Assembly: GCF_002571385.2 (NCBI RefSeq)
Contig: NW_019217852.1
Location: forward strand, 55,071 to 119,070
Length of the DNA stretch: 64,000 nucleotides
Source: Stylophora pistillata
Lineage: Eukaryota
Direction of reading: 5' to 3'
Shown: one piece after another, positions 6,773 through 33,400 of the stretch
Layout: the number at the start of each line of letters is the position of its first letter
How positions within the stretch are numbered: the stretch's first letter is position 1
Translations under genes and position numbers: made by a program
Notes under the pieces: model-generated
Databases searched by the model: none
What the model saw: only the letters and a program-made list of their open reading frames with translations
Told to the model about the DNA's origin: nothing

Positions 6773-7105
6773 TGGTAACAATCACGAAGGTATACACCCG
6801 ACAAAGTATCCCCGAATTCAAAACAAGTCATCTACTTCAAGTGGAGAAAGGGCAATACGTGGAAATCAGTCTTAAACTACGCCTACCGCCTCATTTGCCT
6901 GGAGCACCTTGTGCCGATGAGGAATATCTTGAGATCCGTGATGGTTATGATCAGTCTGCCAATCTACTGGGTGTACTTTGTGGAAGGAATTTTCTTCATT
7001 TTATCCGGCGATCCAGTGGACGTAACATGTGGTTAAGATTTTCCGCTCAGCGTAGATACCAGGATGAGTACAGTTACTATGAGGGAAAGGCACTAAATGA
7101 AACAG
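6773..7105 (+). CDS. CUB-domain exon of the LRR-GPCR
   Basis: CADEEYLEIRDGYDQSANLLGVLCG...SSGRNMWLRF is the CUB core. AG acceptor at 6771-72 and GC donor (GCAAGT) at 7106. Confidence 0.8.
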
Positions 7106-7193
7106 GCAAGTGTTGAGAGGGCTCAATTATGTTATACAGTCGGACTGTTATAATTAAACGAAATTGATGAGTGTTTCTCAAATTTGTGTTTAG

Positions 7194-7444
7194 TTCCTAC
7201 AAACATGATGAATGTAGCACAAACTCAGTTTGTCCTGCTCAACCATTCGTCATCTTTGTGGTGCCTGGTAGAAAGTGACCGGCTCCTTATATTGTTTGGA
7301 GAAAGAATGAGACGGTTGTGCAAAACAGCACAAGTGTACGACTCCAAATCAACGTTACTGAAGAAGAAAGAAATACAAAGTACAGCTGCGAGGTGGACGA
7401 TCATGGTCAGTTGCAGAAGAAAAACATAAGCCTTGTTGTCGAAA
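7194..7444 (+). CDS. Immunoglobulin-domain exon of the LRR-GPCR (1 bp frameshift near 7278)
   Basis: SSSLWCLVES / PAPYIVWRKNETVVQNST...KYSCEV gives the Ig C-W-YxC pattern split over two frames. AG and GTAAGT boundaries. Confidence 0.8.
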
Positions 7445-7969
7445 GTAAGTTTTTTAAGTTCCATTTTCAAGAGCCTACCAATATCATCTTTCCTATAATA
7501 TAGATAATTCCAACTTGGAAACTTTTTTGTATAGTTTAAACAAATTAAACTTCAGTCATAACTACGGTTAAAGCTTTATCAAATAGGCTTTCGGGATTGT
7601 TTTAAATAATTTTACGTGGGTTCAAGACTATTTCTAGAACAAGAAGTCGTCATCCTCATAAGTCCGAAACACTAACTGTGCAGCAAAATCCTCAGGCGAA
7701 CTCATAATCCAAATTCAGCGAGGAAGTCCACGATAACTCAACTGCAAAATCATGCCTCTATGAGCAAAGCCATGTATACTATGTGTCTTAGCCTATAAAG
7801 ACAGAAAGTGTCGATCTGTAAGGGTGGTAATGAACCATTCATATCGATTTTGACAATTTTTTATCCAATTGATTCTTATCAAGAGATAATTAATATTCTC
7901 TTGTTCTTATACTGGTGACTCTCTGCGTTTTGTAGAAATGCGGAATAAAATTAAAGCATCGTTTGTTAG

Positions 7970-8093
7970 GTTGTCCTCAACCATGTCAATGCAGTGATCT
8001 GAAAGGTAACATGAAAGGCCTAATAAGGGTTGATTGTAAAGAAAAAGGGCTTCCCTCAATTCCACAGAAAATTCCAAGCCCTACAGCAAAACT
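7970..8093 (+). CDS. LRR N-terminal cap exon
   Basis: CPQPCQC...VDCKEKGLPSIPQKIPSPTAKL between AG and GTAAGT. Confidence 0.85.
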
Positions 8094-8820
8094 GTAAGTA
8101 CTTAGGTTAGCAGAGAAGACTAGAATATAGAATATGATCTATTACGATCGAAGATCCTGTTCCTATAAAGACACGCATGTGTTAAAAAACCATATAGGAT
8201 GCAGTTAACTTCAATTTTTGTGGTATATTTCTTATTTATTGTCGTTAGATAAGTAAAAGGGGTGTTTTAAAAATACATCCAGCAACAATTTCGATATTGC
8301 TGTTTTTAAAGGAATGTATATATGAATATCACTTTCATTTGTGAGCAACATTTCAATTACTTTCTTTCTTCTCGTGTTCAGGCGAATGATTACTTATAAA
8401 CGCTGCTGCTGTGAACAAAAGTTAAGTTCATTCACAGCAGCTTAAGATTTGGAATTATTTTTGACAAAAAATTAAGTTATCATTATACTAAAATTGAGGG
8501 ATATTTCTATTTGAATGTATCTAGTCTAGCCCTGGCCCCCTAAAGTTACTTGTTAGTTTTCCGTGGTATTCATGGTTCGCTGATTGACCAAATTGACAAG
8601 GACTCGTCAGACGAAAGTACTATACCAGGGAAATAAAAACAGGCTTTCCAAAGACTCCTTTTGCCACTTATAAGGATACCCAAACGATTATCAGATAATA
8701 CTTACCACCCTATCCGCTTAATGGATAGCAACTTGCTTTAGTCGAAAGCGTATTACTAGAACGTAATCATAGCTGGCAGCCAAGTCCTTACATTTCTACG
8801 TTATCCCATGTTGGTTATAG

Positions 8821-11800
8821 GGACTTATCAAGAAATCAGATAGAGTCAATACTGCCAGGAGTTTTTGATAGCCTGACTAAGCTCAGTATCCTGTAAGTAG
8901 TCTTTTCGGTGTAATTTCACTGACGTGTGCGACTTAATGTTTAAAATTTTGATGTAAGCAAAACAATTAAAAGATTTTTTTCGAGGACTCTTCTCGCCAC
9001 ACATAAGCATACTTAAAAAAAACACTATGTCATAATCACCAACCTATTTTTTAAATGAATAATAACTGCTACTCCATGAGAACACATCGCTAATACCCAT
9101 TTCATGTCCATCAGCTAATAAGTGAGACTTCTATGATGTTCTATTTCGGTAACAGGGACTTGTCAAAAAGTTCGATAAAGACATTACCACCAAGAGTTTT
9201 TAATCACTTGACTCAGCTAGGAGAGCTGTAAGTAGTTTTTTTAGTGCATATGTAATTCCGCTGACGCTTATCAGTATCACGGACGCAGTCTCATGTTTGA
9301 AAATCTCATGTGACAAAAAAACTAGGGACTGCTCTCGCCACATATGAAAATACCCAAGAGAATACTATGTCAATTTCATTCCCAAATTAATGTAGAGCTA
9401 CTCGCCTTCTTTAACGTCTCATGGCTAGGACCTTAATAATAGATGGCAGCTAAGACCTAACACTTCTGCTATTCCCTCTATTGTTTACAGGGACTTTTCA
9501 GAAAATCTGATTGAGACATTACCGCCAGGAGTTTTTAATAACTTGAGTGCACTTTATAAGCTGTAAGTAGTTCTCTAGATACAAATTTAATTCTACTGAC
9601 GCGAGCAATCTCATATTTAAAAATGCCATCTGTACATCTTTTGTTTACATAAAGCGCTTCTTTGCATTCCTTATGTTCGATTGATCACCAGACAGGGCCT
9701 TAAGGTGCTTGAACCAAGGAAACCCACCGATCCTTCATTCAGTCCTATATTTCCCTGTCCCTTAAGATGACAGGCGACGAACTTCTCAGTTCTCAGAGCT
9801 TCTCTGTTCTCAGTAACTGATTAGCCGCCGAAAATTTCTCTCCTCTGGCAAGTCATCGATGACTACTGATTGTCTTCTGTAGTTTCAATTTGCATTTTCG
9901 CAAACGTGTTGTAAATACTTCCTTCGTGAAAGTTGAAGTTCAGTAAGAGTCCACTGTAAAAATCATAAAGAGCACCATGCTAAATTCCAAAAGTGCAGAG
10001 CTATACTGGCCCATAGAGATATTAGTGTCCCAAAGGCGTCAGGAACTACCTATTGAAGGCAACTTCAACCAGGAACAACCCCATTAAATGTGATGATCTA
10101 AAACATTAGCAGCAAAGATCAAAGTTTCATGGTACCAAGAGATAGTAACCTCAAAGCTGACACCATATACAACAGGCTTCCCAGAGTTACGGAATCTATG
10201 CGGAATATGAGCGGTCCTAGTGCCACAAACCTTTTTTCCCAAATGCACTCCCTCTCAGAGATTGCGTCGGTTGGTTAAAAAAGTGAAAAGGACAAAAGAA
10301 GAAAGGAAAAAAGGAAAGGAATATTGACTTCATGAAAAGCCTAAACGCTAAGTAACAATATCTAGTTTCGAGGCACATTCCTTCGGTGACTCAAATGAAG
10401 ATAAACGTTCTCGAAAGTTGTGGAAACAATATCTGTTTCTAATAAATTCTTAGTCAAATTATTCTAAATCAAGTCGTGATATGGAATTTAATCCGATATT
10501 AAAAGTTGCTTGAATGTAGTAAAAAGATACAAAGTTTTATTAGAGATTTGTATTCGTGCAAAAATCCAGCTGGTGGCAGATATGAATGATATGGAAGCAT
10601 TCCACCAAGGCCTGCGAGAGAGGCAGCTCTAAAAAAATGGGCAGCACACATTTCATTGCAGCAAATGGGTTGACACTTCTGCAAGAGAAAGAAGGACTAC
10701 TGGACAGATTTTCTGACCACTTCAACCAACTACTCAATGTATCAGGGCCCTTGGATAAAGCAGCAAAAGAAGAACAAAGAGAGACCTATAGTTATCGAGT
10801 TAGAGGAGGAGCCTACGGTTGAAAAACTTCTGTCAGCAATCAAGGAATGCATTTCGGCTTCACATACTAACACTGCAAATCTGGAGGTGTGAAGATGTTC
10901 CACAAGGATGGAAAGCCACTAAAATAGTACTATATTCAAGAAGGCAATAGGAAGAATTGTGGGAACTATCGTGGTCTATCTCTACTCTTAATTATCAACA
11001 AAATGCTCTCGCGTATCCTCTTAAACAGACTCAACTTGCACATAACATCACAAAATACGACCAGATTCAGTGTGGCTTCAAGAGTGGCGGGAGCACAATG
11101 ATCGTGATTTTCTACCTACGTCAGATGCAGGAAAGGAAAAATGTATCGAACGCAACCTGCCTCCTTTACATAGTGTTCATCGACTTTCGGAAACCCTTTG
11201 ACAATGTNTGCTTGAATGTAGTAAAAAGATATAAGGTTTTATTAGAAATTTTTATTCGTGCAAAAATCCAGCTGGTGGCAGACATGAATGATATGAAAGC
11301 ATTCCACCAAGGCCTGCGAAAGACGCAGCTCTAAAAAAATGGGCAGCACACATTTCATTGCAGCAAATTGGTTGACACTTCTGCAAGAGAAAGAAGGACT
11401 ACTGGACAGATTTTCTGACCACTTCAACCAACTACTCAATGTACCAGGGCCCTTGGATACAGCAGCAGAAGAAGAACAAAGAGAGACCTATAGTTATCGA
11501 GTTAGAGGAGGAGCCTACGGTTGAAAAACCTCTGTCAGCAATCAAGGAATGCATTTCGGCTTCACATAATAACACTGCAAATCTGGAGGTGTGAAGATGT
11601 TCCACAAGGATGGAAAGCCACTAAAATAGTACTATATTCAAGGAGGCAATAGGAAGAATTGTGGGAACTATCGTAGTCTATCTCTATTCTTAATTATCAA
11701 CAAAATGCTCTAGCGTATCCTCTTAAACAGACTCAACTTACACATAACATCACAAAATACGACCAGATTCAGTGTGGCTTCAAGAGTGGCGGGAGCACAA

Positions 11801-14800
11801 TGATCGTGATTTTCTGCCTACGTCAGATGCAGGAGAGGAAAAATGTATCGAACGCAACCTGCCTCCTTTACATAGTGTTCATCGACTTCCGGAAAGCCTT
11901 TGACAATGTGTCCCGCCAAGGCTCGTGGTCTGTTCGCAAGAAATATGCCTGTCCCAATAACATATCAACATATGCAACACCAGCACTAAAGACTTTCAAT
12001 TCACCAATGGCGTGAAACAAGGTTGTGATGACGCCCACCCTGTTCTTGTTTTATCAGACAGCTTTGCTGGAAGTGGCCGTCAAAGACACCAGAGAAGGAG
12101 TTTACATTCGAACCAGGAAGCTTGAAATCTAAATACCATGATTAGCCTGAAAGCCGTCAGAGATTTGTTGCTCGATGACGAAAGCGCTCTTTAATCACAC
12201 AACCCTTTGCATATAAAAATTGTCGTTCACAAACTCGCCAAAGCTGCATCATAGTTTAGCCCAAAGAACAGAGCTGTTTATACCAACCGCATGAATTCTT
12301 GACTGATGCTATGCCGACAGCGATTAAGGTCAAAAACTAACCGTTCACAATGTATAAGATATAAGCATTTTATCTATCGTTACAGTAAAGTCTCAGAGAG
12401 GCCAAGACTCGATTAGGGAATCACTATGGGAATGGGTAAGGCTAGTGTTGCGAATGGGAAACTTCAGGAAAGAATAAGGAGAAATTGGGGGAAATGTCAT
12501 CACCAGAAGTAAATGTAAGCTGTTATGCTTACCACGTACATTCCTCGATGGTACCGAAACTTGGACCATTTACCTGCCACAAGTGAAGATCCTAAATGTA
12601 TCATGAGCAAACTAAGTGGGATAATGACTATCTCTTGGACAGACAAAATCACAAACAAAAATATTTTAAAGAGTGCAGGTCTCCTATCTATGGCTGAAAT
12701 ATTAACCCAGATGAACTGAGATGAGTCGGCGACGTAAGGAGGAGGGAATTTTGCGAAATTACCTAGGCAGTTGCTGTACTCCCAACTTCGAGAAGGCAAG
12801 AGAAACCAGGCAAGGCCTAGGTTTCGATTCAAGGACACCGCGCAAGAAACCCGAAGCAGAAGAACATTGCAGAAGGTACATGGAAGCAGGGAACAAAAGA
12901 CAGAGAAGCCTGGAGGAACCTGATTAGAGCCTGAGCTGACATAAAACATTCCTTTTCAAGTCCCCAGAGTAGCAGTAGTAATATAATTTACTGTTTCCAA
13001 AGTAGTTTATATCACCCATCTTTCCCGCTAGGGTAACCTATCAAAACATAGGATTTACTTTATTATGAACACGGTCGCAACTGGTTATTTAACGAGCCTG
13101 ACTATGGGTTTCCCTTGCTCCACAGGCGACCCGGCTTCAGGGATAATATGCAGGCTGGGAAATGAAACATTTCCATGTAGTTGAGGTCTTAATCACATAC
13201 CACTATATGTAATAGAGTAGGTGAAATTGATCCAGTATAGAAATTCTGTCTTTCAAAGGAAAGAGTCAGCCGGGCGTTGGAAAACGAAAGCTTTCAAAAG
13301 GATGATCTCAGATTATCTGGCACTTTAAAGCTTTTGTTTATCGTTTAACGTAAACAGGGACGTATCAAACAATCAGTTAAAGAACTTCTCCTCAGGAGTC
13401 TTTGATCCGCTTTGCCACTTATTAACTCTGTAAGTAACCGCCATCATGTCTATTGGTCTTTCAGTGGACGTCCCATAAATTTTGGTTTTTCTTGTTACTT
13501 AACATGATTATTTTATTCTCTGTATTAATTAATGTATTTTTTGTCATCTTGGTCGTTATTTGAAATGCAACACTGACACATTCCCATTACTTAGTTTTCA
13601 TTATTCACTAACTTGTTGATTAGTAATCTTTTTGGACATAATTTTGCCTCAAATGAAAATCGGTGAACTGATAATATCAATAAATGTGGATTTTACTGTT
13701 GGTGTGACTTCCCCCGATGTTACCATCTTTTACATAAATTTCACGTGTGGATGTTTCCGCTTTTGCAGTGATCTGTCTTACAACCTACTAGAGCAATTAC
13801 CTTCAGCAGTTTTCTTTCGTAATGATTATCTTGAAGAGCTGTAAGTAGAACTTCTATGTATTGTATACAAGTAAGTTATTTGATGGCAGCAGCACTCAAG
13901 TTCAGGAATTTTATAACTTTTCAATTCCCTATCAGAACTCGGTACAACACATGTTCAAACTTTAATACACCCACATGTGAAATAACCTTTTGTTCATATG
14001 TGTTAAAAGGACATTTTTTCCAATTTTTTAGTGTGGTCCCGCTCTCTGGATGATTTCTTTTTTTTTAGCAAAGTGCTAAGCATCCCCCAAAAGGTTTTCC
14101 GTTATGGGATATAATTGAGATCATATTGTAGGATTGCCTAATGAATTATACAAAAGGTTTCTTCAAATTGGAAGGAATGTTATCAGTGATATCTTCAATT
14201 CAATGACTATCGCAAATATTATTACAAGCTCATACCCACAGAAACAAAATCACTACCTTCAGTGCCTACAATTTTTGCATGTGGCAGTCAGCAAAGTGAA
14301 CGCTCTTATCATGATTGCCTTCTTCTTCCAATTCAGTAACACCTAAAAAATAGACTCGACAACGTTGCCCGTAACAGGTTTTGTTTTTGATGACCTTGCA
14401 GATTCTTGAACAACAACAAGTTAACTAATTTCTCTTCTGGTCAACTTCCTCTCTTTCGGGTTTCATGGTTGAGCAAATTTCAAAACTTGTAAGTATGGCG
14501 CGTTCAAAACTTAACTTTTGCACAGTAAACTGATATCAACTTCAAACTATGCAGCATCTATTTGGTAGCCTTGGAAAAGTGCATCTTGCTAAGTGGGCCT
14601 CACCTGAGAATTACCCCACCAAAATTACTTAAAATGCATCATGAGCGTGCACTGATACCAAAAAAACCCTATCAACTTAACCTCCTAAAGAGTTTTTAAT
14701 CAAAGGAAACTAATACTCTTGAAAAATATATGAATTGGTGCCCTTTTATAACATCTAAACGTGAGAATTAATCTAGGCAGCCTTTTGAAGTTTAAACTTG

Positions 14801-17800
14801 ATGTGATCTCAAAAAGTAATCCCGGGTAATTTGTATGTTCACCAACAACTTAAAAATGCGCTATACGCTGTGTTCTGCGCTTAACTGTTAAGAATAAGGT
14901 TGACAAAAATGACAGGACATGTTTTAAGCGAAAATAAACCTCAGGGTTGGGTTTACTAACGCGGCTGTTTTGTTTAGCAAAATTTAATCTCGGAGAAAAT
15001 TTCAAATAGGGTGAAAAACTGCAGACAATCTGCAAAATTAATAATTTATTTTCTAACACAGAACCCTGGACTTCAACAAATTGGAGACACTGCCACCGGA
15101 TGTGTTCATAGCCCATAAGTTATTTGATCTGTGAGTAAATATTTCTCTGAAGCTCACCATAAAGGCTCTGAATAAATGGGTCACATCAATGACCCCCCTT
15201 TATCTGAGCTAGGTTTCACTGTTCCCAGTCGACCAAGTATCCACTAAATCATTCGGAAGTGTTTTCTTTCCGGTTACTTCCTCTATAACTTCATAGATCC
15301 TTTCTAACTCAAACCCTTTTCGATTTTGTCAATCATGAGTAACACCGCAAATAACATATAAACATTTGAAAAATGTAACTGCTGAAAAGAATCAGTGAAA
15401 AATCATTAAAAAAAAAGTAATGGATGATTTCTGGGTATGGGTGTCCACTCCCTTCCCCTAATTTACCAGTGGTTTGAGCATCGCTTCCTTTCATCTCGAT
15501 TTTCATCTGTCAGCATTTACTGGATTATAATTAAATTGATACCAAATCATAACAAGATAAAGTACGGCATCCTTATAGAACGACTGGGCTGATCAAATAT
15601 CCAGATGGTAGATTTCTCGGGCTTCCCAGACTCTAGAAAACCAATTAATAAATGCATTTATGCATCAAAATCTAATGATTTATTTTGAAAATCAAGAAAC
15701 CCTCATGCCGTCGATGAGTGCATTTAAATTCTAGACCTTTCGTAAGCTCGATTACCAGCCGCTGTTCGGGAACGGGAGCCCGCGCTCCTCCCCGAAGCGA
15801 CGGCTGGACGTTGTTTTGTTGTTCATAGCCAATCAGAATTTCGCCTGCAGATTTTTGTAAGGCCGCATAAATTATCTTGTCAGACAAAATTTTCAAAGTG
15901 GTGGACGATGACAAAATGACGAATGTGACATGCGATCGACAGTTTGACAGATTTACAACCAGAAGCTCTAGAGAAACTGGTTAGCGGCCAGCATGTCTTC
16001 GAGATTCCAACCAACGGTTAGACAGTTTTTCAGCCCGCTCCGATTGTTTTTGACGCGGTGATATCATATGAGACCTTTGTTAAATACGAAGTCAATCGCT
16101 CCTGTCATTTCTCCTATGGGTTCACTTTTGGAAGATCAAGTTCGATTTCTTAAATCTGTGGGAAGTACAGTAAAGTTTATTTGAGACGAACAAACGAGTT
16201 AAGAGACCATTTAACTCATAGAAAGTGGAGAGCGCCAAATCGTGTGCAGTTCACCCAAGGCGTTTCTGTCAACTAAACGATAGCGGTACATGCCTCTCCA
16301 AAGAGAAGTTATGTCTGATTGCAATTGACGAGGCTGACTGCATTTCTCATTGGTGAGCGGAGCTATATTCGAAGCGCGTTTCGTATATTATTCAAGGATT
16401 AGTAGTCCTTTTAATAGCACTTAAACCTAAATAGCACAAGGCTTTCATGCACGATGGAACATTTCGAGCCATGGGTGAGAGAAATGAAAATTAAACAGGA
16501 TAAGATGCCTGTGTAGTGTTTATTGTTGCTTTTAAAACTTAGATTTAATAAAGAACGAAGGGGTTCAAACTTTGAGTAAAATCACACCAAGTTATGGAAA
16601 TCAGTCTGCACTTAAAGCCTTGACAAATAAGGCTTTTCAGTAATTTTTTGTCACAACAACTTTAAGCCTGATTTGTGATTATTTCAAATACAAGCAAGCA
16701 GTTTACTAAACTACAGAAAGTGGAGAGAAACCACTCTATTGGAGACCCTTTGAAAGAATCCCATAATATTTCTCGGTGTAGTTTTATTTTCAACTTGAAA
16801 GTGCAGTTCTAAATTAGTTGGAAATGATAGTCTTTTCGCGGCCTTAACTCTTCCTTGATCTGCTGCGTGACGAAGAGATATGACAGCGCGGCAACACTTG
16901 GTGAAATTGCGGAATCGGAGGGCACGTCCGCGCTTCGTTCTATTCACTCACATCCAGTTCTCGAGTTAAATTTAATCCGCGTATCAGCGGTTATATGTAC
17001 GCCATCCATTCGAATTGGAGTCCTCTTTCATTTCCGGTGACACCTGAGAGCGCATAGATTAATTTTTTCAAATTAAGTCACAGACATGGTTGGCCGCTCA
17101 TGCGTCCAGCCGTCTCTTCTCGGAGAGGAACGAAAAAGACCGGACCCGAGAGAGCGGCGGAAATCGAGCCTAGACCTTTCGTTGTTCACTGAAATAGCAA
17201 TTAGGAAAGAGCCAGATGATTTAGAATCCCGCTCTCTATCTTAATTCCCTTCATTTTATACAATTGATGAAATTCTTTTGACACGTTTTATTGGACAGCT
17301 GGATGGGAAACAACAACTTAAAGACATTACCTGAAGATCTGTTTGCCGGGCAAAATCTGTTAAAATATCTGTGAGTAATAACTTTCTTTCAAAAATTTTC
17401 ACTCGAAAGTCAGTTGTCCTGCTCTCTTTGGCTGCTGACGAGGGCACATAAGAGAGGCAGAAGAACTTCCTAAATACAGTTGATCCTAGTCACAAAATAC
17501 CGTCATTTGGTCAAAAGTCTCTGGGTTACATTGAGCAATAATTTTTTGAAGAACGTACTTCTTTGAACCGCTGGCTCAAGTATCAGTTTCGGATCAAATG
17601 GAATATGAGAAGGGATTACAAAGGGGTCCTGTTGTTGTGATTGTCCTGTTGTTGGTCATGTTTGTAACTTTTCAGGCTTTACACTGTGCAACTCCTTTAA
17701 ATGTATCTACTTATAATGATCACTTTGAGGCTTGGTTCTCATTGTTTTTCGCGTTTGGCCAGCGTTGTATCTGTTGAGCAAAAAGGCATGTTGAATGTTT

Positions 17801-20800: not shown

Positions 20801-23800
20801 TCAAAGAAAAGCTCGACCAAAAAATCGAGGATCTACAACAGCCGCAAGCCTCGAACAATACAACAACTTCTAGTTCCTCCTGTTCTTCCCCTTGATTTGT
20901 GATGATCTTAGGTATAGCGCATTAGATCATATATATAATGAATTTTGCGCTATAGAAATAATAAAATTATTAAATTATTATACGAAAAAATCCTTAGTCT
21001 TTATGCTTTCCACTTTTGCTCGAACAGCTAACAACAATGCATAAAACCATCCCTTCTTTCTCACATGAACTCTTCGTTAGATACGGTTTGTTTACGCTCG
21101 AGGGACACCAAGATGGCGGATAGTAACCGTTGCTAAGGTATTGGTCACGTGGGTGAAATCCAGGAATTCGTCACTTTTTACCACGTGACCTCCGTGACTC
21201 TGAATGTTCTGTGTAATGACAGTCGTTTGATCGTTTTGTTATCGATTCGTTTATTGTTAAATGCATAAAATTGCACTGCATATTCAATCGAAGTAACAAG
21301 GTCTGCAGTGGTAAACTTGGGGGATTTTTGGTTCTTACAGGGCTGTTTATGACAACAACATTGAACATCTGCCACGTGAAGTTTTTAAAGACACCAAAAA
21401 CATGTCGTTCATGTAAGTACATGTTCAAATTTTTATTCCTGATTTTCTGTAGTTAGTTATTCGAAAAATAATAAGTATCACGAAGGAAAGTATTGCCGGA
21501 AATTGGCTTTCCGAATAAGCGGTACTGGACTCAATTCTTTCCAGAGAAAACCTTGATCTTCGTTGATTTAAAATGTACTAATAGCTCCAAAGGCGCTTGT
21601 GCTACGCTCTGAAGGCTATGGCACCTGCTGCATTTCTCCTCTCTGTAATATATTCATAAGTCATCATACCCATGATGCTTGGTGAATAAAGGAGAGAGAA
21701 CACACCTCGTAGTTGTTGTGCTTTTCTTAGTGTAATTATCCTAAAATACAACATTTCCGGCAACAAGGATGGCTGCTAGTGCACCTTTTGGTAAAGTCGG
21801 GGAGTTTAGTCCTGAGAAAGAGACGTTCAGCGCCTATGTTTAAAGAGTTGAGATGTCTTCCACTGCAAACGGTATCGTCGAAGGAGCGGGCGAACGACAA
21901 GAGGCGGCCAACGAACTGATCGAAGAAAGACAAAGGGCAATTTTTCTCACAGAAGTTGGGCCAGAAGTTTATTCTACACTAAGCAACCTTGTGGCGCCCA
22001 TGAAACCGAAGGAAATTCCACTGACCAAAATAATCGAATGTCTGGAAAAACACTACAATCCGCGTCCACTCGAGATTGCCGAAAGTTTACACTTTGGCAC
22101 ACGTAATCAAAAGCAAGGTGAATCCGTGAATGACTTCACTGTTACATTAAAGAAATTGTCTATACACTGCAATTATAGACTGTTTCTGGACAGAGCTCTG
22201 AGAGATCGATTTGTTTGTGGTCTCAACAATGTCAAGGTACAAAACAAGCTGCTGAATACCGAAGACCTTACGTTTGATCGAGCATGTCGGATTGCAAAGT
22301 CCATGGAGATGGCTGAGAAGAGTTCACAAGACTTTCACCCTGCTGCTGCCGTAGGAGAAAGTGAAAGAGGAACTGTTAACCAACTTAAAACTGAGAAAAT
22401 GAGCGCAAAGGAAAACTCGTCCAACAAATCATGTTTTAGATGTGGAAGAAAACACAACTATAATAGTTGTAAGTTTAAAAATGCTAAATGTTTTAAGTGT
22501 TCAAAAATAGGGCATATCGCCACAGTATGTCGTGCTAAAAGTGAAGAAAACAAAGCCAACTCGTTTTCGGCTAAGGGTAGCATTCAAAACATGCAAAGTA
22601 ATGATGAATATGATGAACTGGGTATATTTTCTGTCGAAACCACTGTGTCGAAGAATGATAAGTACAAAGTTAACATGTCACTCAATGGTTGTATGTGCGA
22701 GATGGAAGTGGATACTGCAGCAGATCGCTCAATTTTGAGTAAGAGCACTTACTAAAATTCAGTAACTTCACCCTTGCACCTTCAAACGCTATACTTAAGA
22801 CCTACACGGGGGAGCTGGTAAATGTGTGTGGAGAAATGAGATGTGATGTGGTATATAAGGGCCAAACTTACTCGTTACCCTAGTTAGTTGCAGATTACAC
22901 AGGGAAACCAACTTTGCTTGGGAGGGATTAACTTAGTTGTGTTAAGTTCGATTGGGAAAACATCTTTCAGATTAAAAGCCCAGAACCTCATGGAAACACA
23001 AGTCAGCTTGACAACTTTATTTCAAAGCACAATTTTCTCTTTGAGGATAGTTATGAAGGTCTTCAGTGGTTGGAAGCCCATATAACTATTAGAAAAGGGC
23101 CAAAACCTGTTTTCTTTAAACCCAGAAAAATGCCATATGCCTTAAAAAGATGCAGCTGAGCGTGAGCTAGATAAGCTGGAGGAGAATGGTGTCATAAAGA
23201 AGGTTGAGAGGTCTGTGTGGGCAAGCCCAATAGTAGTAGAACCCAAAGCTGACAAATCAGTCAGAATATGCGGTGATTATAAGGTCACTATAAACCATTC
23301 AGTGGAGGATGAACCATACCCTCTTCCAACTACACAAGACTTGTACAATGCTCTTAGTGGCTCCAAAGATTTTAGCAAACTTGATTTGTCGCACGCTTAC
23401 GCTCAACCTAGTGTTGACAAAGAAAGCCAAGAATACCTTACCATAAATACACATAAGGGGCTGTATTCTTACACCAAGCTTCCTTATGGGGTTAGATCCT
23501 CCCCAAAACTCTTCCAGGCAAAAATGGACCTTATATTACAGGGTGTAGAAAGGTGTGTTTGCAAGCAAGATGATATTCTCATAGGTGGTGGGGACTCTCA
23601 GGAAAATCTGAGAATCCTTTCAGAGGTATTAGAACGCTTGCACAAATATAATGTACACTTGAAGCTATCCAAATGCGAATTTCTGAAAACAGATGTAGTT
23701 TACCTTGGCCTACGAATAAGTGAAGCTGGACTACAGCCGGTTGAAGAAAAACTTGAATCAGTTAGAAAAGCACCAGTACCACGTGATGTCAGTAAGTTAT

Positions 23801-26800
23801 GGTCATTCCTGGGAATGATCCAATATTACCATTCCTTTCATCCAAACCTAGCGAGTTCTCTAGCATCCCTTCATGATCTTTTAAGGAAGGGAAAGGCATG
23901 GGTTTGGACTACTGAGTGCCAAAACGCCTATGATGGCTGTAAAGAAGGCCTTACGAGTGACTCTCTGCTAGTTCACTATGACGTCACTAGAGAGCTTAGG
24001 CTGGCCTGTGATGCCTCCAGTTATGGGCTTGGAGCTGTCATAAGTCATGAGATGGATGACGGCAGGGAAAGGCCCGTTGCTTATGCCTCAAGAAATTTAA
24101 CGTCTAGTGAAAGTAATTACGCCCAAATTGAGCGTGAGGCACTGTCTATCATCTATGGGTTAAGGAAGTTTCATCAATTCTTATATGGGCGGAAGTTTAC
24201 TTTGGTCACCGATCACAAACCTCTGCTGTCAATTCTTGGACCAAAGTCGGCCATTCCCACATTAGCTGCAGCCCGGATGCAGCGGTGGGCCCTAGTTTTG
24301 TCAGCATATGACTATGAGATTGTATTCAAATGATCTGAAGATCATGCCAACTATAATGCATTGTCACGACTGCCACACAAAGGCTCTGATCTAGCTAGTG
24401 AAGCTTCAATTTATCGTGCAAGTGCTGTTGATGATGATTTTCCCATCTTAGCCAAATACATTGCCAGAGAAACCCAACATGATCTAGCAATGAGCAATGT
24501 CCTTCATTTTGTTATGTCTGGATGGCCAGACATATGTGAGGATGAAACACTAAAACCTTATCACAATCGTAGGCTAGAGTTGTCCTGTAAACAAAGCTGT
24601 ATTCTTAGGGGTTCAAGAGGAATCATCCCACCCTCTCTAAGAGTCAAAATGTTGAAGGAGTTGCACTGGGAACACCCTGGGATGTGCGGGATGAAAGCAA
24701 TTGCACGCTCATGTGTGTGGTGGCCCAAAATGGATAAGAAAATAGAGGATGTAGTGAGGTTCTTGTACAGTGTGTCAGAGTACTAGGACTTCTCCACCAT
24801 GTGCACCTTTACTTTCATGGAAATGGACAAGAAAATCATTCCAGAGAATTCATGTCGATTTCTGTCAAAAAGAAGCTGATTACTTTCTATTAGTTGTTGA
24901 TAGCCACTCCAAGTGGATGGAGGTCAAACATATGACCTCAACCACGGCTGATAAAACAATTGATGAGTTACGGTTGATCTTCGCAGAGCATGGTTTACCA
25001 GAAGAGCTAGTCTCTGACAATGGTCCACAATTTGTGTCCCATGAGTTTTCTGAATTTATGCCTAAAAATGGAATAAAACACACTTTGGTCCTTCCCTATT
25101 ATCCACCATCTAATGGGGCAGCTGAGAGGTCTATGAGAGTGTTGAAAGAAGCATTGATAAAGCAAGTATTGGAGGGAACCAAGAGAATATCCATGAAGCA
25201 TAGATTGGTCAATTTTTTGTTTAGGTATCGCACAGCCCCTCACAGCACCACTGGTGTGACCTCAGCAGAACTCATGGTAAAACGTAAATTAAGAACTGGG
25301 CTAAGCTTAGTTAAATCTGATCTAGAACAAGCTGTTCAACACAAGCAAACTAAGCAAGCAGTTTATAAGGATCCTAAAGTTGATGCAGAGAGATTTTTCC
25401 AAGTATATGATAGAGTGCGTGTACGAAACACCAGACCAAAATCTCAGGTTGATAGGTGGGTTCCAGGGACAGTTGTTAAAGTCTGTGGTCCCAGAACATA
25501 TATTGTTAAAACAGGATATCGGAATCGTTATGTGCACACTGATCACATGATAAGGGCTTGTGTCAATGCACCTGATAAGGTTGAGGAAGCTGAAGTTATG
25601 GTTCCCGAGTCATATGAACAGCCTGAGCAAGAGGAAAATCCTGAAAAAACCTCAGAATTGTCACAGATACCAGATAACTCAAATCCAGTTGTGCCAATGG
25701 CACCTATTTGTTTAGGTCATGAGGCCTCCGCCTCTCCATGTGTTTTGAGGAGATCCGAAAGAGTTTAAAAACCTGTTGATAGACTTAACCTTTGAGCATC
25801 TAGGTATTTTCATTTGCTGATTGTTATTGTTGAGTTATGTTGAAAAAGAAACCCCACTTTGCTTTGTGGGGGAAATTAGTGTAATACATTCATACGTCAT
25901 CATACCCATGATGCTTGGTGCATAAAGGAGAGAGAACACACCTTGTAGTTGTTGTGGTTTTCTTAGTGTGATTATCCTAAATTATAACACTCTCCACCTA
26001 AAAAAGTGACTAGATATCTTCTGTATTCCACCGTCTTCCGGACCTCTTTCTTTAGTGGAGCAGTTAGGAGGGGCATTGATATGAAGCCCAAACAAGACAA
26101 AACAAGTCTGCATCCGAGGAGAATCTGTCGACAATTTGTGCTGCTTGATCCTTTACTATTATAATTGCCACAGGGTGAAGATCATTTCCGTTGTGGATCT
26201 TCTTGAGTTCGTGAGACTTTGTGATACAAAACAACCAGCAAACAACCAAAAGTAAAGTAAGAAACATTAACTATCCTCAGAGCAAATCAGAGGACATGAT
26301 TTGCCAGACATTAAACTTTCACTCATGGCCCCGTGTTCAGTTGTGTTCTCTGCTTATTGCTCCCCCACTTTAACAGATGAAAATGGCTTTTCGCAAGAAT
26401 GTCGTCCTCTATTGTCTCCTTCAATACAGCTTCCCCCTGATGCCATAATAACTCCAGTCTGGCAAACTAACATTTCTGATATTTCCTCACTTTGCAGGAG
26501 CTTTTATCTCAACAAAATCCGCACAGTGACCAATGAACAATTCAAAGATGTCGCACCAACCATTCAATTCCTGTGAGTATGCATAAACTGAAACGATTCA
26601 AGGCATTATGAAAATTTTACGGAATGTCAATTTCTAGTTAATACAGGGAGTAGAATGTTAGTACGGCATAAATTTAGGTGTTTTAGTGTCCAAGGTTTTA
26701 GATTATGTTCTGTATTACATGGTCATTTCAGAATTACTTGTATGCGAAAATGTGAGATTATCTTAGCACCAGAGGCTTACATTGACTGCTCTATCGTTTT

Positions 26801-27164
26801 CCTTACTCACCGAAGGTCTCCTTTCCTCAGAATTTGGCAGAATTTAGGTATCACCAAATTATAAGAGGCTTGGCTAATGTGAGAACGGTATACCCCTCCG
26901 TCCTCTTAGGTCCCTAAGTGTAGCATAAATATTGACATGTTTATGAGTTCCTACAGTTTGAAGAATTTGTTTGTACAAAGGAAGAGGGAGAGAAGACGCC
27001 CTAGAAGAGGTTTATATGAAGCTGAGGAAGCACCATGTCATTACAGAATGGGCAAGCATTGTTTAACTGAAATACTTTCTATCCATTTGCAGGTACTTTC
27101 ATTACAACCAAATGCGAGAGCTACCCAGAGGGTTTTTCTCGAATATGAAGAAATTAATAACAGC
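8821..27164 (+). CDS. Array of 14 single-LRR exons (66-87 bp, mostly 72 bp, all phase 2-2)
   Basis: Each encodes xLxxNxLxxLPxxVFxxLxxLxxL, e.g. DLSRNQIESILPGVFDSLTKLSIL and DLSYNGIERLPLDVFGNLTKLKKV, with AG/GT borders. Confidence 0.85.
10507..11909. repeat. 701 bp direct duplication joined by a single N (10507-11207 / 11209-11909)
   Basis: Both copies run TGCTTGAATGTAG...TTTGACAATGT with scattered substitutions. The N is at 11208. Confidence 0.9.
10507..12930 (+). mobile_element. Degenerate RTE-clade non-LTR retrotransposon in an LRR intron
   Basis: Broken RT motifs: DHFNQLLN, CGNYRGLSL, QCGF...IF.LRQMQE, FIDFRKAFDNV, NGVKQGC and C-terminal SQLREGKRNQARPRFRFKDT. Many stops and frameshifts. 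The element may extend further 5'. Confidence 0.8.
15743..17172 (+). mobile_element. Non-autonomous AcademH-type DNA transposon with RecQ helicase remnant
   Basis: Imperfect TIRs TAAGCTCGATT.../...AATCGAGCCTA and a perfect 9 bp TSD GACCTTTCG. Internal VISPMGSLLEDQVRFLKSVG and IAIDEADCISHW (about 16090-16353). Confidence 0.82.
18903..19058. repeat. 78 bp tandem duplication (2 copies)
   Basis: TGTTTCACCTTGCAATTTGGCTAACAACTA... occurs at 18903 and 18981. Confidence 0.9.
20126..21167. mobile_element. Internally deleted ISL2EU-like (PIF/Harbinger group) transposon
   Basis: TIR ATTC(T/C)TGG(G/A)TTTCA and inverted subterminal TTGGTGTCCCTCG. The + strand ORF 20331-20663 (FKAFKSLEAFNQMVSGFV...RVWHSQ) continues as TCTQVKCSWILP at 20701. 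A convergent THAP start MVLCIVVSCSSKSGKHKD*GFFR begins at 21050(-). Confidence 0.72.
21644..21753 (+). repeat. 5' LTR
   Basis: Direct repeat of 25880-25989 with about 8 substitutions in 110 bp. Confidence 0.93.
21769..25768 (+). pseudogene. Gypsy gag-pol (zinc knuckles, protease, RT, RNase H, integrase) with stops and frameshifts
   Basis: CFRCGRKH/CFKCSKIGHIATVC, VDTAA, WASPIV..CGDYK, KQDD, CDASSYGLGAV, TDHKPL, HWEHPG, SDNGPQF and SNGAAER. Stops at 21841, 22753 and 24331. Confidence 0.92.
25880..25989 (+). repeat. 3' LTR
   Basis: Preceded by the purine tract GGGGGAAA and followed by the TSD CTCTC. Confidence 0.93.
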
Positions 27165-27368
27165 GTAAGTGAGCTAGATTAACCTCAATGCCTGGTCTGA
27201 AGGGATTTATGCTTTTCCTCTCAGAAATGTTTTCCTATAGCCTTATCTCTAGCCAAATAATTAGACCTTGTTATACATCATAATATTACACCTGCGTCAG
27301 TTTAATTAAATACCATTGCTTAACAAGTTTTTCCTCCGGATGTATTGTAAGTGTTTTTTGAACTGCAG

Positions 27369-28326
27369 GACTGTAGACACCAACCTGATGTGCTGTCACT
27401 TAACGAAAGAAGACGCAGATTGCGATTTTGTCTATGTCGACAGCTTTGCCAGTTGTGAAACGATGTTCATGAATCGAGCTCCCAAGACGTGTATCTGGGT
27501 TATTGCTATCATGTCTCTGGTTGGCGCTGTGTTTGTTATCACATGGAGAATGATCCACAGGGAGAAAGATATTGTACAGCCAATCATGTTAATACACTTA
27601 GCAGTATCTGATGGCTTAATGGGTGTTTACCTAATCACCATAGGTTATAAGGATGCCATTTGGACGGGGCAATATTACTTGCATGACTATGAGTTGCGAT
27701 CAAGTTTGTCATGGCAGATAAACGGTGCAATCGCTGTATTATCAAGCGAGGTGTCAATAATGCTTCTTTCTCTGATCTCTGCTGACAGGCTTAAAAATAT
27801 TGTGTTCCCTTTTTATGTCGGTGGCCTAACCAACAAAGACACTCATGCGTTGTGCTTTACTATCTGGATCATCGGTTTCATAATTGCTTTTCTTCCCACT
27901 TTTGGCATCCAGTATTTTGAAGGCCCTGGAGGTCATCACTTCTATGGAAAATCTGTTGTATGTCTCCCACTTCAGCTCTCCCATGATAAGGCACTTGGTT
28001 GGGAATATTCTCTGGCTGTCTTTGTTGGCTTAAATTTGGCTTTTTTGGCATTTGTTATTGTCGCTTACCTTATAATAGTTGTAAACAGATGTCGGGTTCA
28101 GGCAATGTCAGCCAACACCCAGCGAGAGACAGCTCTTGCCAAACGGGTGTTTTTCATCATCCTGACTGACTGCATCTGCTGGATGCCCGTTATTGTGATT
28201 GGACTAAGGTCCATCGCGGAAAAGGCGTTCAGGACACGAGGAGATCTTGCCGTATGGATCGCAGTGTTTGCTCTTCCATTAAACTCCGCCATCAATCCAA
28301 TCCTATACACCTTGTCCACCACACAG
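27369..28326 (+). CDS. Hinge and rhodopsin-type 7TM exon (GRL101/RXFP-like)
   Basis: MCCHL...SCE hinge, HLAVSDGLMGVYL, LSSEVS...SADR, VCLPL, FFIILTDCICWMP and LPLNSAINPILY. Confidence 0.92.
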
Positions 28327-30267
28327 GTAACTATCTCTTTAGAATTTGTAAATTCAAATAGAATTATCATAAACATGAAAGCTCTGCTAGTTTATCTCAC
28401 TGAAACACATCACCGAAATGTCAATAAAAAGATGACAGCCTACAATAGTCAACTCTTGAACAACTGACGAAACTAATTAGGGGAGAGTAGGAAGAATTAA
28501 GGATTTACCCTTTGTAACGTTATAAGGTTCTAAACAAAATATGCATTAAAAAATACATTAGATGTATCATGGATTTCACATTACTTATTTTTTTGGTATT
28601 AAGTTGGATATTACTAATATTAAGTTAGGATCTCACCAATCATTACCCTAGTTACTAGATCGATATCCTTGAGTAAGCGCTTTTAAAAAGATATGTTTTA
28701 GATTTAAAGTAATAAGAAGTCAAACACTTTATCGCAGAGGGACCAGTTTATGCGAATATCCTCAAATACAGATAAAATTTAAAATTTACAGGTTTAAAAA
28801 AAAGAACCAAAATAAATACGTTTTGTCACATTAACTTTTAGTAACACAAAGCCATCTCGCATGACCTGACATGGCCTTTCGATATTTTCATTGGAGAAAT
28901 GTTTAATTCAAGGAAAAAAAAAATTTTTGTCCCAAATATAGGTTCGAAACGTTCTCAAAGCAAAATGGCAACAGCTGTGCAACTATTTCATGGCAAAGTG
29001 TACTCGAACCCAAACCAGAGAAGGTATGGGCCTCCGCTGATGTTTTGCTTCAGCTAATACTCACCAATTAAGATGGCAACTCAGTTCTATCTTACTTTTC
29101 TTATTAAGATGTGAGAGATCCGGGTCACGATCAGGCTTTCGAGATGAGGACTTTCGGAGCTGCTGGAAGGGAAGAGGGTACGTGAACCGGAAAAAGAAAG
29201 ATATATTGGTTTTACTTTGTTCGTTTAACAATCTTTTCCTTTGTCCATTCAATGTCCTTTTGGATCTATGCCCCAAATATTGACCTCAGTAACCATGAAC
29301 AGTGTCTTTCTTAATGGGTGTTTCTGAGAAGAGAGGAAAGTAATATGCATGCACTGTTAGCCATTTTGCCGATCACATCTTTGACGATAGTACAAAATCG
29401 TTTGAAACTTTCATCGGAGAAAACCAAAAATAGACATAGGCTAATTGACCATTTCATCTTTACAAAAAAAAATAATCTAGACTGTTCTCTTTAATCATAA
29501 ATCACTAGATATGCTTTATAGACCGCAGGAACGAATGTGTAGAACATTGTGTCGGCCATTAACAAAATGAAGAACAAAATAACGATCATAAAGAGAATAA
29601 GGAGACTTTAAAAAAGCCAACAAATCCGAAATTGAAGCATGCTAAGAATAAAGAACCCACTGGATAACTTCCAAATGATCATAATGGTATTTGAGCCACA
29701 GAGTGGTCTTATTTGTTTCTCAAGTCTCATTTACAAGCAAGCAAAAAAAAATTCAACCGAGTGGATAAATTTCAGAATGGAGGAACGGCAGTACAAATTT
29801 GCAAGTTCTATCTTTGTGATGATGTTGTGTAATCCGCTTTGTCCACAAACCGATCTCACAATAATTACTAATCTCTTAAAGTTGCATATTCCACACAGGA
29901 CCAGACAAAGAAGCCGAAGAAGAAACTTAAAAAGAGCAAGAGGAGGTCCACAAACATGATCACTCACGTGTGGAACACACTGGACCCCGAGATACATGTA
30001 AAGGGCAGCTGAACACAATACAGAAAGAGCCTGCCAAGCCAGGACAGCCTGAAACTGAGCCTACCGATCGCGACTCTACTGACAAGATAACAGTACAGCC
30101 AATGAAGACAGAGGCTGAAGATCATAAACAGACCCAGAAAGATGTTGCAGAAAATTCCAAATATGAAGAGCTACACACAGACTTTAAAGGAGGTGAGGAC
30201 CAATCTACTGATTAAAGTAAGGTTTTCTTCATCACTAACTCCAAATTTAGGTATTAAAATCTATTTA

Positions 30268-30414
30268 TGGGTCATCCTCGGTGTTAAAACCTAACGAGGT
30301 TTTCTTTGTTTCATGAGGTATTGTTTTGTTGTACGCTATTGTTTATAATGTTTTGTTGTCTTTGTCTTACGTCACTCGTGAGCTTCAAAGGTTTTTACAC
30401 CGAGGATGAGCCCA
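30268..30414. mobile_element. Small MITE in the last GPCR intron
   Basis: About 24 bp TIRs GGG(C)TCATCCTCGGTGT(T/A)AAAACCT flanked by ATTTA(T) direct repeats. Confidence 0.7.
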
Positions 30415-33400
30415 ATTTATGCACTCCGTTATTCCTAAGTGCACAAAGGGAAGGTCATAACAGGGTACCGGCATTATCATGATATCTGGTATGGCATCCT
30501 CATGGCATCTTGTCCAATTAAATGTAAAACACAATTTCCTCAGGCAACTTGTTGGCAATCAAACACAGATGAGGATTATTTTATTATTTCTCAGAGCAAA
30601 ATCAAGAAGATGTTGCCAAAGATCACTCGAAGGCCGAAGGAACCGTAGCGGCTCCTCAAACCAACTCGGACGAGGAGGTTTACGTGATAGTGTGGGAAAC
30701 AGCTCTATAATCCGGAAATCCACCTAGAAACGGCGACAGTGATACTAAGTTCAAAAGTTGAATTGTTTAATCCAGGTCTCATATTTGAAACATGGGTCTT
30801 CTTCACCCCTTATAGCGAATACGTAACCACAGCAGTTTGAATCAGTGCTTCTCATTGATAACCGGTAGTATACACTGTCATTAAGTATTCGCGATATATT
30901 AAGAAATCGTAAAATAATGTTTTAAGAATCTCTTTAGACACTCAAGGGCACAGATGATTATAGTGAAGTCCTGTGGAATCTGGTACAACCTTTGAAAGAA
31001 ACTATGCAGATTTCAAAGGCTCATAGAGTTTGCAGGAGTGCTTTTAGTTACAGAGATTAAAATTTAATACTCTTTTTTCATCCGAATAGTCGTTATTCGT
31101 CGATATTTAACTTTTGAGTAGATGGCCACATTGAATACCAGTGTTAAGCCATTAATCATGTTTACTCAACCACACACCATTCTAAGCTGGATGTGATGGC
31201 TCATATTCATTTATTCTGATTTGTTGTAAAATTAATATTAACATAAAGTTTTGTAGAAGCTTGTGCAAATGTATGTAGACAGGGAATCACAATGCTAAAC
31301 CTTAGAGCTGCCATGCACATTACTAATGTGCCCAGAAGTACCAACAGAGAACCCCTTTATGAAGATTTGTCAAGCTTGTAAAACTAATTCAATGATTAAA
31401 GATTTAAAAAGGTGTGAGACATGAATAGCAACTGCATACAAAGGTGGTCAAAATAAGATGTTGGGGATTGTCATCAAGGTGATGCTCAACATCCCTTTAA
31501 GGGCCCAATCACTTCTGTGTCCTAATTTTATACTTTTTTTCCTGAGTTCTCTCCTCCTCTTAAGTGTCTCAGAAAAACCAGAATTGAAGAGCAACATACT
31601 CGCTGCAAAAGAAAAAAATTAAACGGACAACTGGAACACCATCTTGAAAACAAACTATATCCAACTGATAATCTTAGTCTTTCTTAGTACGAAGAAAACA
31701 GACGCAATCAATTCATCTGAAACATGCCGGTGAAAAGCTGATTAAAACAGAGTTCATGTGGCATTTTTGAGTAACATCATCGAGATCAATTTCCTCCAAG
31801 ACGGGGTTCATCTACGAAGGTATTTTTTAAAGCCGAGAAAAGCTGTTATAACTTTAGGGAGAAGTATAGGAAGAAAAGGAGACAAGTTTGAGCAGTTCGT
31901 TGTGCGAGGAGATTCATAGATGGGATAAATATAGAACGTAACGAAGGGATTGAATTTCGGGATGGCTTTTCTGTTCGTCGTTGGAGCAAAGCAAGTAAGC
32001 TTATCAATTATGCCAGAAAAAAAAAAGGAGAATACTGGTTCTCCCAGGGGGACCTCGTATCCTTTGATAACTTTGTGCCACCTTTGAGCCAATTCGGTGG
32101 TTTGAGCACTATCGCCCCTTGGCTGAATACATGTACATATACGTCTGGCTTACTCATGGACAATTTCTGAAACAGTTCTTCGTTTTGTTGAAAGAAATTA
32201 AAATTTTGATGCCTCCCCTCCATCAACAATAACAATAATGCATAGTTTAAGGTTGTATTGTTAATTAAAATGCGTTAATACAAGTTATGCATATCCTTTA
32301 GTTTGGAAAATAATTCGCGTTCTAGAAAGTTTTAAGAACTAAATAATATCAAACAGCCCTTCAATGAACTGACAGCAATCATTATGTAACACTTAACCTG
32401 CGTCAAAACAACGATACTGCAAGGTTGAAGGTTTATCTGCAGTGCACAAATTTGAGGAGAAATTACAAATGGGGGGCTTTTCCAGCTTTTGAAAATACAG
32501 TAGAAAATTCTCGATAAAAAAAAAGGTTTGGATTTTTTATATATCTCAGCTATCTGCTTTAGCCACAAGATGATTTCAATATCTAAGTAAGTTTTAGGTT
32601 TAAATTGATTAAACTGGGCAAACATTTCTTGTGGTTTGGAATAAATTGGTTTGGTTTACCAAAATTGGATTAAATTTAATTTTTCAGGGGTTCGTTTGCA
32701 ATATTTTGACCGAAAAACCCTCTGGTTCTACCATTTAGAGGCTGTTAGTACTGTCCTGAAAACTTTTTTCAGATCTTGTTTTCACTACTGCTTAAGTAGC
32801 TCACAAACATTACTGTTCTGGATGTATCAACATTATCAAGACACGTGTTGGAATTATTGATTTTGCTACGAATAAATTTCGATCCCACCTCTTTGCCGCG
32901 GAATCTAACCGTAATCACAGGCTTATGCAGGTTGTTTACCTAATTAACGTTATACGAGGCCAGCTAAAAATAGCTATACGAAAATTTCATTTTCAACGGT
33001 AAATGTAGCGATCATGCCCTGACGTATTTCCCGTTTTACCTTAAAAAAAAGAGCAGTAATAGGTTTTGGGATTGCTTAACAAAAAAGTAGCTAATCTCAA
33101 AGTTTCCAATTTCAAGTTTCTCTTTGAATCGGAGCTCCAACTGCTCAAAACAAAACGTCGCGGGAGGTAAACTTTCCAAACAACTAATATCTTTACCTGG
33201 TTGGCGAAAGAAACGGAGCATCAAATTTTTCTCGCTCTCCTAGAGGATTTAATTGTTATCTCGATCAGTTGTATACCGAGGATGATTTTGAACGTATCAA
33301 GAATCAAAATAACCTCGAAGTCGCAATATGAAACGTCATCCGTTTGATTCAACTTTGCATGAAGAACGTTCTGCCTTTTTTAAGTCCATCACTTCTAAAC

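Follow-up and report, generated by a model that had tools for sequence, protein, structure and literature searches.

The stretch of the Stylophora pistillata genome considered here (the window: 64,000 nucleotides, positions 55071-119070 of contig C69, NW_019217852.1, in genome G000; all coordinates below are window positions) raises the question of what kind of receptor places a CUB and an immunoglobulin-like (Ig) domain in front of a leucine-rich repeat (LRR) array and a seven-transmembrane (7TM) domain, and what such a receptor serves to recognise. The architecture is real and the copy in the window is out of frame: the gene plan is signal peptide, CUB, Ig, LRRNT, 16 LRR exons, a short cysteine hinge, 7TM and an acidic tail. 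As far as its sequence tells, the window copy is a frameshifted, likely non-functional (null) allele; intact members of the family, at a probability of about 0.5, serve at the cell surface as a varied set of recognition receptors.

All exons of the gene lie on the forward strand. The first coding exon, considered missing in an earlier note on this DNA, was found at 4627-4666: it opens with ATG, runs on as a hydrophobic stretch, read by eye as a predicted signal peptide, and ends at a GT donor in phase 1, in phase with the CUB exon. It has a counterpart 5' of CUB/Ig in eight of ten loci scanned (one of these being the haplotig of the same gene) and resembles the N-termini of the full-length models P0023 and P0016. 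The CUB exon (6773-7105; GC donor, one disulfide) was located by Pfam (26.2 bits, cut-off 21.4) and splice scanning, and the predicted structure of its product adopts a CUB fold, with spermadhesins among the fold matches. The Ig-like exon follows at 7194-7444; its fragment scores 24.4 bits against Ig_2, below the cut-off of 27, whereas intact P0016 scores 36.2. The LRRNT cap exon (7970-8093) was placed by splice scanning and haplotig comparison. From 8821 to 27164, splice scanning yields 16 phase-2 LRR exons rather than the 14 repeats counted earlier: five distal ones (block 8821-13840, starting at 8821, 9156, 9491, 13358 and 13769), the first three of which are a 335-nt tandem triplication, and eleven proximal ones (block 14402-27164, starting at 14402, 15062, 17299, 17841, 18207, 18735, 19329, 19679, 21341, 26498 and 27093), which form a block of the same order in paralogues. 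The hinge (CC..C..DSFASCETMF) and the 7TM domain share one open exon (27369-28326), and LRRNT through the end of the seventh transmembrane helix gives 747 stop-free residues once spliced. This last exon is 100% identical to the S. pistillata 'GRL101-like' protein P0001, a RefSeq-type model of 593 residues that begins only at the eighth LRR exon and that also supplies two short tail exons (28942-29023 and 29109-29177, span 28942-29177). In the acidic tail exon (29899-30216) the frame is interrupted by stops at 29928 and 30213, positions that paralogues read through; the earlier end of the gene at 30710 keeps its basis in a last tail exon (30595-30710) homologous to the P0006 C-terminus, but that exon lies 3' of both stops. 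In the full-length structure model, CUB and Ig are poorly predicted (predicted local distance difference test below 50), so domain packing was not taken from it.

The exons from CUB through 7TM that the earlier note had listed are thus all present; what fails is their joining in phase, since the Ig exon of 251 nt is one base short, with a frameshift near 7276 in the assembly, so that the spliced frame terminates after 202 residues. The same deletion is found in C1272, a haplotig with 98.9% identity across 9 kb and with single-nucleotide polymorphisms to either side of it. Contigs from sequencing runs X17 and X19 have one extra base at 7276, at full depth, restoring the Ig frame; both runs come from a single study and have heterozygous sites in common, and may therefore represent one genotype. 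With the missing base present there, the window copy looks like a null allele. Its 7TM domain has in addition lost the tryptophan of the first extracellular loop (ECL1; to Leu) and C3.25 (to Trp), the only such copy among 214 filled rows; C3.25 is the cysteine that anchors the second extracellular loop (ECL2) in RXFP1 (bioRxiv 2022.01.22.477343). The dN/dS to the nearest paralogue is 0.26, as elsewhere in the family, so the decay is recent. That these lesions stem from misassembly, the sequenced colony having an intact gene, is very improbable: the Ig lesion is only one base and X17 and X19 show the intact frame, but a polymorphism-distinct second haplotig has the identical deletion, and the C3.25 and ECL1 changes and the two tail stops are further lesions.

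Judged by sequence matches, the gene is one of dozens of paralogues in the genome, a large tandem expansion of stony corals. There are at least 113 7TM matches (the top 32 at 54-100% identity) and, among matches listed, at least 66 to CUB and at least 80 to Ig, counts that haplotigs inflate. A same-strand Ig lies within 16 kb of 53 of the 66 listed CUB matches. Seventeen of these 53 pairs are on a contig with one of the 72 7TM matches entered (41 weaker or duplicate ones of the 113 being excluded), the 7TM on the same strand in all 17 and downstream in 11. One tandem paralogue lies 41 kb upstream of the window gene. Across 31 loci examined, an intact alignment was obtained for CUB at 25 and for Ig at 26, one stop-bearing row being removed by eye. 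About 11 proximal LRR exons form a fixed-order block among paralogues, and the distal ones vary in number and sequence; at one Pocillopora locus, six database isoforms each lack different LRR units, retaining 12-18 of 19. Some copies depart from the common plan. In the models of two members, P0013 and P0025, the cytoplasmic tail contains an OTU-like protease domain, which could be a fusion or a model artefact; the paralogue P0041 (C69:676001-706000, loci L067-L069) is modelled as signal-Ig-LRR and has no CUB match in its Ig-bearing stretch, a natural CUB-less variant or a deletion; and contig C738 holds two identically scoring CUB-Ig units 19.5 kb apart (at 47024 and 66557), a very recent duplication or an assembly repeat.

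That CUB-Ig and LRR-7TM belong to one type of gene, as first proposed, is borne out by the intact models P0023 (Stylophora), P0015/P0016 (Pocillopora verrucosa) and P0264 (Montipora foliosa), the last with CUB and Ig each below the Pfam cut-off. A secondary BLAST alignment of the Montipora and pocilloporid proteins is colinear across CUB, Ig and LRRNT; their single origin is drawn from the 7TM tree and this colinearity, not from CUB likeness. A protein search with CUB-Ig matched only four proteins, all pocilloporid, the Montipora CUB-Ig region as query matched none of 513 candidates, and the Atlas gave no usable match; these blanks are uninformative because the cluster representatives lack that region. 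The absence of LDLa before the LRRs also stands: the best LDLa profile score across 14 genomic regions (several with runs of N) was 12.5 bits against 45.2 and 37.6 for the control, tblastn with RXFP1 and a multi-LDLa protein gave 7TM matches only and no LDLa upstream, and the signal exon is in phase with CUB.

The general features of an LRR-bearing G-protein-coupled receptor (LGR) are all found in the family: an LRRNT and LRR ectodomain, a cysteine hinge, a rhodopsin-type 7TM domain, and an ECL2 C-phi-P-phi motif bonded to C3.25, which the window copy alone lacks. Its place among LGRs was taken from 7TM trees (FastTree with 221 rows, after removal of identical rows, 27 rows of fish RXFP1 and 19 that were short; quick IQ-TREE with 58 and 29). 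It forms, distinct from the RXFP, GRL101-like and type A/B receptors, a clade of its own at 100 (SH-like approximate likelihood ratio test; FastTree and quick IQ-TREE), within an anthozoan LGR group supported at 99-100 whose named members come from Nematostella, Exaiptasia, Acropora, Oculina and Desmophyllum. Approximately unbiased (AU) tests (29 rows, LG+G4, quick tree) reject grouping with RXFP/type C1 (p = 0.010), with GRL101-like receptors (p = 1e-4; two multi-LDLa rows, one the 'GRL101-like' P0115, with Lymnaea GRL101 absent) and with the type A/B-like receptors of the same genome (p = 0.009; three G000 loci, one checked as LHCGR-like). The earlier label of a GRL101/RXFP-type 7TM therefore survives in that RXFP1 is the closest solved structure, but not as orthology to either. 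A S. pistillata receptor with CUB, FN2 and LDLa (P0271/L040), the architecture drawn for Nvec-LGR4 (PMC9545775), is a separate gene in the tree.

The likeness to RXFP1/RXFP2 (type C1) is in the signalling half: in a solved-structure comparison run with the hinge and 7TM of a neighbouring paralogue, RXFP1 scored 186 bits and the next structure 97, and the short hinge and the ECL2 motif are shared. Unlike these receptors, the coral family has CUB-Ig instead of a single N-terminal LDLa, 12-19 LRR exons where those receptors have about 9-10, hinge Phe and Cys residues absent from RXFP1, many genes, and a 7TM domain outside the RXFP clade. With GRL101 and type C2, including bilaterian CUB-CTL-LDLa forms (P0088, P0118, P0116), it shares the database name 'GRL101-like', CUB modules, present in many type C2 LGRs, and a short, cysteine-rich hinge of the form DxFxxCxx(L/M), whose CC, C and FxxC are common to the family and the multi-LDLa rows; it differs in having an Ig and no LDLa where type C2 has several before the LRRs, and in its separate clade. 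LGR4/5/6 (type B) resemble it in their long LRR solenoid and are the best fold match of the whole model, the 16 LRR exons falling within the type B range of 14-18 LRRs (PMC9545775); their 7TM domain is far more distant (58 bits), the coral hinge is short, and the type A/B clade does not include the family.

The nearest relatives are the anthozoan CUB-LRR-7TM receptors of the enclosing clade (Nematostella XP_048584250, Acropora P0044, Oculina P0046), in several of which CUB directly precedes the LRRs and modules of the MAM, LDLa, lectin or pentraxin type lie further upstream. They differ in these long N-termini or in kinase-like tails, in lacking an Ig, in having fewer LRRs, and in keeping N1.50 and the hinge Ser. 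The Nematostella protein (P0099, XP_048584250.1) has 3282 residues, with lectin, F5/8, LDLa, MAM, LamG, FN2, pentraxin and CUB before the LRRs; the Acropora and Desmophyllum LGRs P0043-P0051 end in a degenerate protein-kinase-like domain and are thus GPCR-kinase fusions (GPCR, G-protein-coupled receptor). The 'novel, non-A/B/C' LGRs that PMC9545775 reports for Nematostella probably include such receptors; the TrEMBL identifiers in that paper could not be matched to these proteins. The family can be called a lineage-specific class by its coral expansion and its own clade, but a CUB next to LRRs is older than it (P0099, P0044, P0046), so its novel part is the Ig and the loss of upstream modules. 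We infer that it arose in stony corals when an ancestor was trimmed to one CUB, gained an Ig and multiplied its LRR exons.

The 7TM domain retains D2.50, DR3.50, CWxP, NPxxY and the ECL2 disulfide, and the C-phi-P-phi motif is present in nearly all of 54 family rows. The hinge consensus DxFAxCExMF, with its Cys and Phe in 48 of 49 rows, aligns with RXFP1 DGISSLENLL and with TSHR DEFNPCEDIM, the segment called 'P10'. Two positions set the family apart: the hinge has Ala in 46 of 49 rows where 146 of 147 others have Ser, and position 1.50 is Ala or Ser in all 51 filled rows and Asn in all 157 others. In RXFP1, LDLa is required for the response to ligand, ECL2 acts as an internal agonist through its C-phi-P-phi motif, restrained by the LRRs and the hinge, and the hinge substitution S397A lifts basal signalling to 55% (bioRxiv 2022.01.22.477343). 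The earlier proposal that CUB-Ig occupies the place of LDLa holds as far as LDLa is absent; nothing indicates that CUB-Ig does its activating job, and the conserved hinge and ECL2 motifs would offer an alternative route.

Positive selection acts on the CUB loops and, more weakly, on the distal LRRs; there is none in the 7TM domain or the proximal LRRs, and the Ig is borderline. Six of 31 CUB and five of 31 Ig loci were excluded from the codon tests (stops, short or absent). For 25 CUB exons, M2a improves on M1a by a doubled log-likelihood difference (2dL) of 63.6, with 12.5% of sites at an omega (dN/dS) of 3.2; 2dL is 29.1 for 15 close gap-free exons, 17.3 with gap flanks removed and 14.8 for the other nine. 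Null simulations of the 15-exon set reach at most 3.2 without recombination and 17.4 with extreme (shuffled-tree) recombination, none of 24 attaining the observed 29.2. The other values are 0.0 for the 7TM domain, 4.5 for proximal LRRs and 2.0 and 5.7 for Ig. The CUB sites under selection are found close to the N-terminus and in three loops that correspond, by alignment, to the variable loops of cubilin: one ahead of Cys, one following 'CG' and one following the last 'xSD' strand (L5, L7 and L9 in our own mapping). Odd-numbered loops make the ligand site of Ca-binding CUBs (PMC8051872). Ca binding would call for acidic ligands in L5 and L9; in the coral CUB, the 'xSD' Asp is mostly Gln, His or Asn and 'FxLE' is variable, though an acidic pair precedes YLE; to judge from these residues, the domain likely does not bind Ca.

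A mechanism can be outlined on which the variable CUB loops and distal LRRs would bind fast-changing extracellular ligands, whether proteins or glycans of microbes, symbionts or other non-self sources, and the Ig would serve as spacer; relay of the change to the 'CLPL' internal agonist of ECL2 would fall, as in other LGRs, to the cysteine hinge and the conserved block of proximal LRRs, giving an ECL2-driven G-protein output without LDLa. The family-wide change of the hinge Ser to Ala, the same by which human RXFP1 is de-repressed, may have brought down the barrier to activation, and genes would be gained and lost through tandem duplication, LRR-exon duplication and null alleles. Three features expected of a diversified innate immune receptor family are found together here: a large tandem family, pseudogenes, and positive selection on a binding surface, as located by alignment. 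The protein or microbial ligands suggested earlier would suit the diversity that selection on the CUB loops points to; the window copy itself, though, is a likely null allele. A further-reading version, which we hold only tentatively, is that in stony corals the LGR scaffold of hormone receptors became a germline-diversified repertoire for pattern recognition, in which dozens of GPCRs combine CUB loops of antibody-like hypervariability with exon-modular LRR arrays, skipping of LRR exons, and a pre-sensitised, LDLa-independent 7TM domain (the RXFP1 S397A equivalent and loss of N1.50).

Several observations weigh against a panel of recognition receptors. Median pairwise omega is below 1 everywhere (CUB 0.52, Ig 0.38, 7TM 0.23), the M1a/M2a test was implemented by us and lets branch lengths vary only by one common scale, and the strictest CUB subset (2dL 17.3) has a value that the extreme-recombination null can attain. 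The distal LRR signal (2dL 53.7) comes from 23 codons at mostly convex-side positions, and pairwise counts show no excess on the concave face. CUB loops diverge in any CUB family (PMC8051872), and the Montipora CUB has no special likeness to the pocilloporid profile, a comparison that was not significant. RNA reads are sparse on the window exons and no splice joint exceeds the listing threshold, so the joining of CUB-Ig to the LRRs rests on gene models and exon phases. Loss of N1.50, finally, could impair G-protein signalling. It is on this last point that the 7TM domain might be taken as no longer coupled to G proteins, the proteins, with their long acidic tail, working instead in adhesion, as scavengers or as scaffolds, and the OTU or kinase-like tails of some relatives would suit that; the retained signalling motifs and the purifying selection on the 7TM domain make it quite improbable.

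Two further readings concern the ligand. The family might be endocrine or paracrine, its conserved proximal LRRs binding insulin-like or cystine-knot peptides of the coral, with ordinary tandem birth-and-death of genes and CUB variation that tunes affinity or is largely relaxed. Concave positions of the proximal LRRs are indeed more conserved than other surface positions (dN 0.18 against 0.38), every deorphanised LGR binds protein hormones (PMC9545775), and tandem GPCR amplification is pervasive in corals (PMC10236652). Relaxation does not, however, explain a CUB site class with an omega of about 3; the genome already holds separate type A-like (L046) and CUB-FN2-LDLa (P0271/L040) receptors, and dozens of copies far exceed the hormone receptors of the ambulacrarians surveyed (PMC8286064), leaving this a minor possibility. 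Recognition of polymorphic coral surface proteins, as self/non-self or gamete receptors in allorecognition or fertilisation, is unlikely. Stylophora has a well-studied allorecognition response, and the selected CUB loops and the spermadhesin fold matches would fit; but allelic difference at the locus is low, the haplotig CUB protein being 100% identical and the X17/X19 contigs differing by 0-3 letters per 300-450 bases across CUB, and the variation lies between paralogues. Diversified recognition of changing ligands by the intact members of the family remains the reading we prefer.

Intron 1 holds a piece of a Harbinger-like transposon (4999-6531, forward strand; THAP and DDE_Tnp_4 by Pfam) that is polymorphic, a joint 4998>6532 skipping it in the X17 and X19 contigs, and an LRR intron holds a decayed long terminal repeat retrotransposon with reverse transcriptase, RNase H and integrase (21644-25989, forward strand; open reading frames (ORFs), repeat comparison and Pfam). 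Another LRR intron contains a tandemly duplicated fragment of more than 300 nt (10507-11508 and 11677-12950), presumably from a long interspersed element by its sequence likeness. The element at 20164-21127, with imperfect inverted ends of 37 nt and an ORF of 113 aa that has no match in Pfam, is probably a non-autonomous DNA transposon. The window begins with a perfect 1021-nt inverted repeat (1-2190; arms 1-1021 and 1170-2190, 100%), likely an assembly artefact, and the haplotig alignment begins only at about 1760, inside it. Beyond the receptor gene lie two convergent Cys-loop ligand-gated ion channel genes (exons at 37264-41234, forward, and about 50900-51213, reverse; Pfam Neur_chan_memb and Neur_chan_LBD).

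Lineage-specific LGR expansions and CUB-bearing LGRs are already known from prior reports: Nematostella has 13 LGRs, nine of them non-canonical, Trichoplax has 46, and CUB occurs in type C (PMC9545775). The expansion itself was tabulated by Noel et al. 2023 as OG0000096, a coral-amplified 'relaxin receptor/GRL101-like' orthogroup of 327 genes in 11 corals, 40 of them from S. pistillata (PMC10236652); one of its listed best matches, XP_027054123.1, falls into the same 90% cluster as P0016. The orthogroup, probably wider than the CUB-Ig-LRR-7TM family, is listed with GPCR and LRR domains only (five rows), and the passages and supplement rows of that paper that we consulted hold no architecture, tree or selection analysis for it. 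Nor did the literature searched, which excludes most subscription papers, describe the family (including the parts consulted of PMC4079206, PMC9897584, PMC6208414, PMC12630909 and PMC2246102). Not found in that literature were the CUB-Ig-LRR-7TM architecture, the diagnostic residues and the selection signal; the earlier description as a poorly described class applies to the architecture, which we did not find in print, but not to the expansion. Automatic annotation conceals the family, P0001 starting at the eighth LRR exon and cluster representatives often lacking CUB-Ig. Amplified orphan GPCR families are numerous in coral genomes, and an immune or symbiotic role for them has been guessed (PMC10236652). 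An LDLa-free LGR with the hinge change that activates human RXFP1 bears on how LGRs are activated, and this family offers a concrete, testable case, with a variable surface of three CUB loops, a conserved signalling core and natural null alleles.

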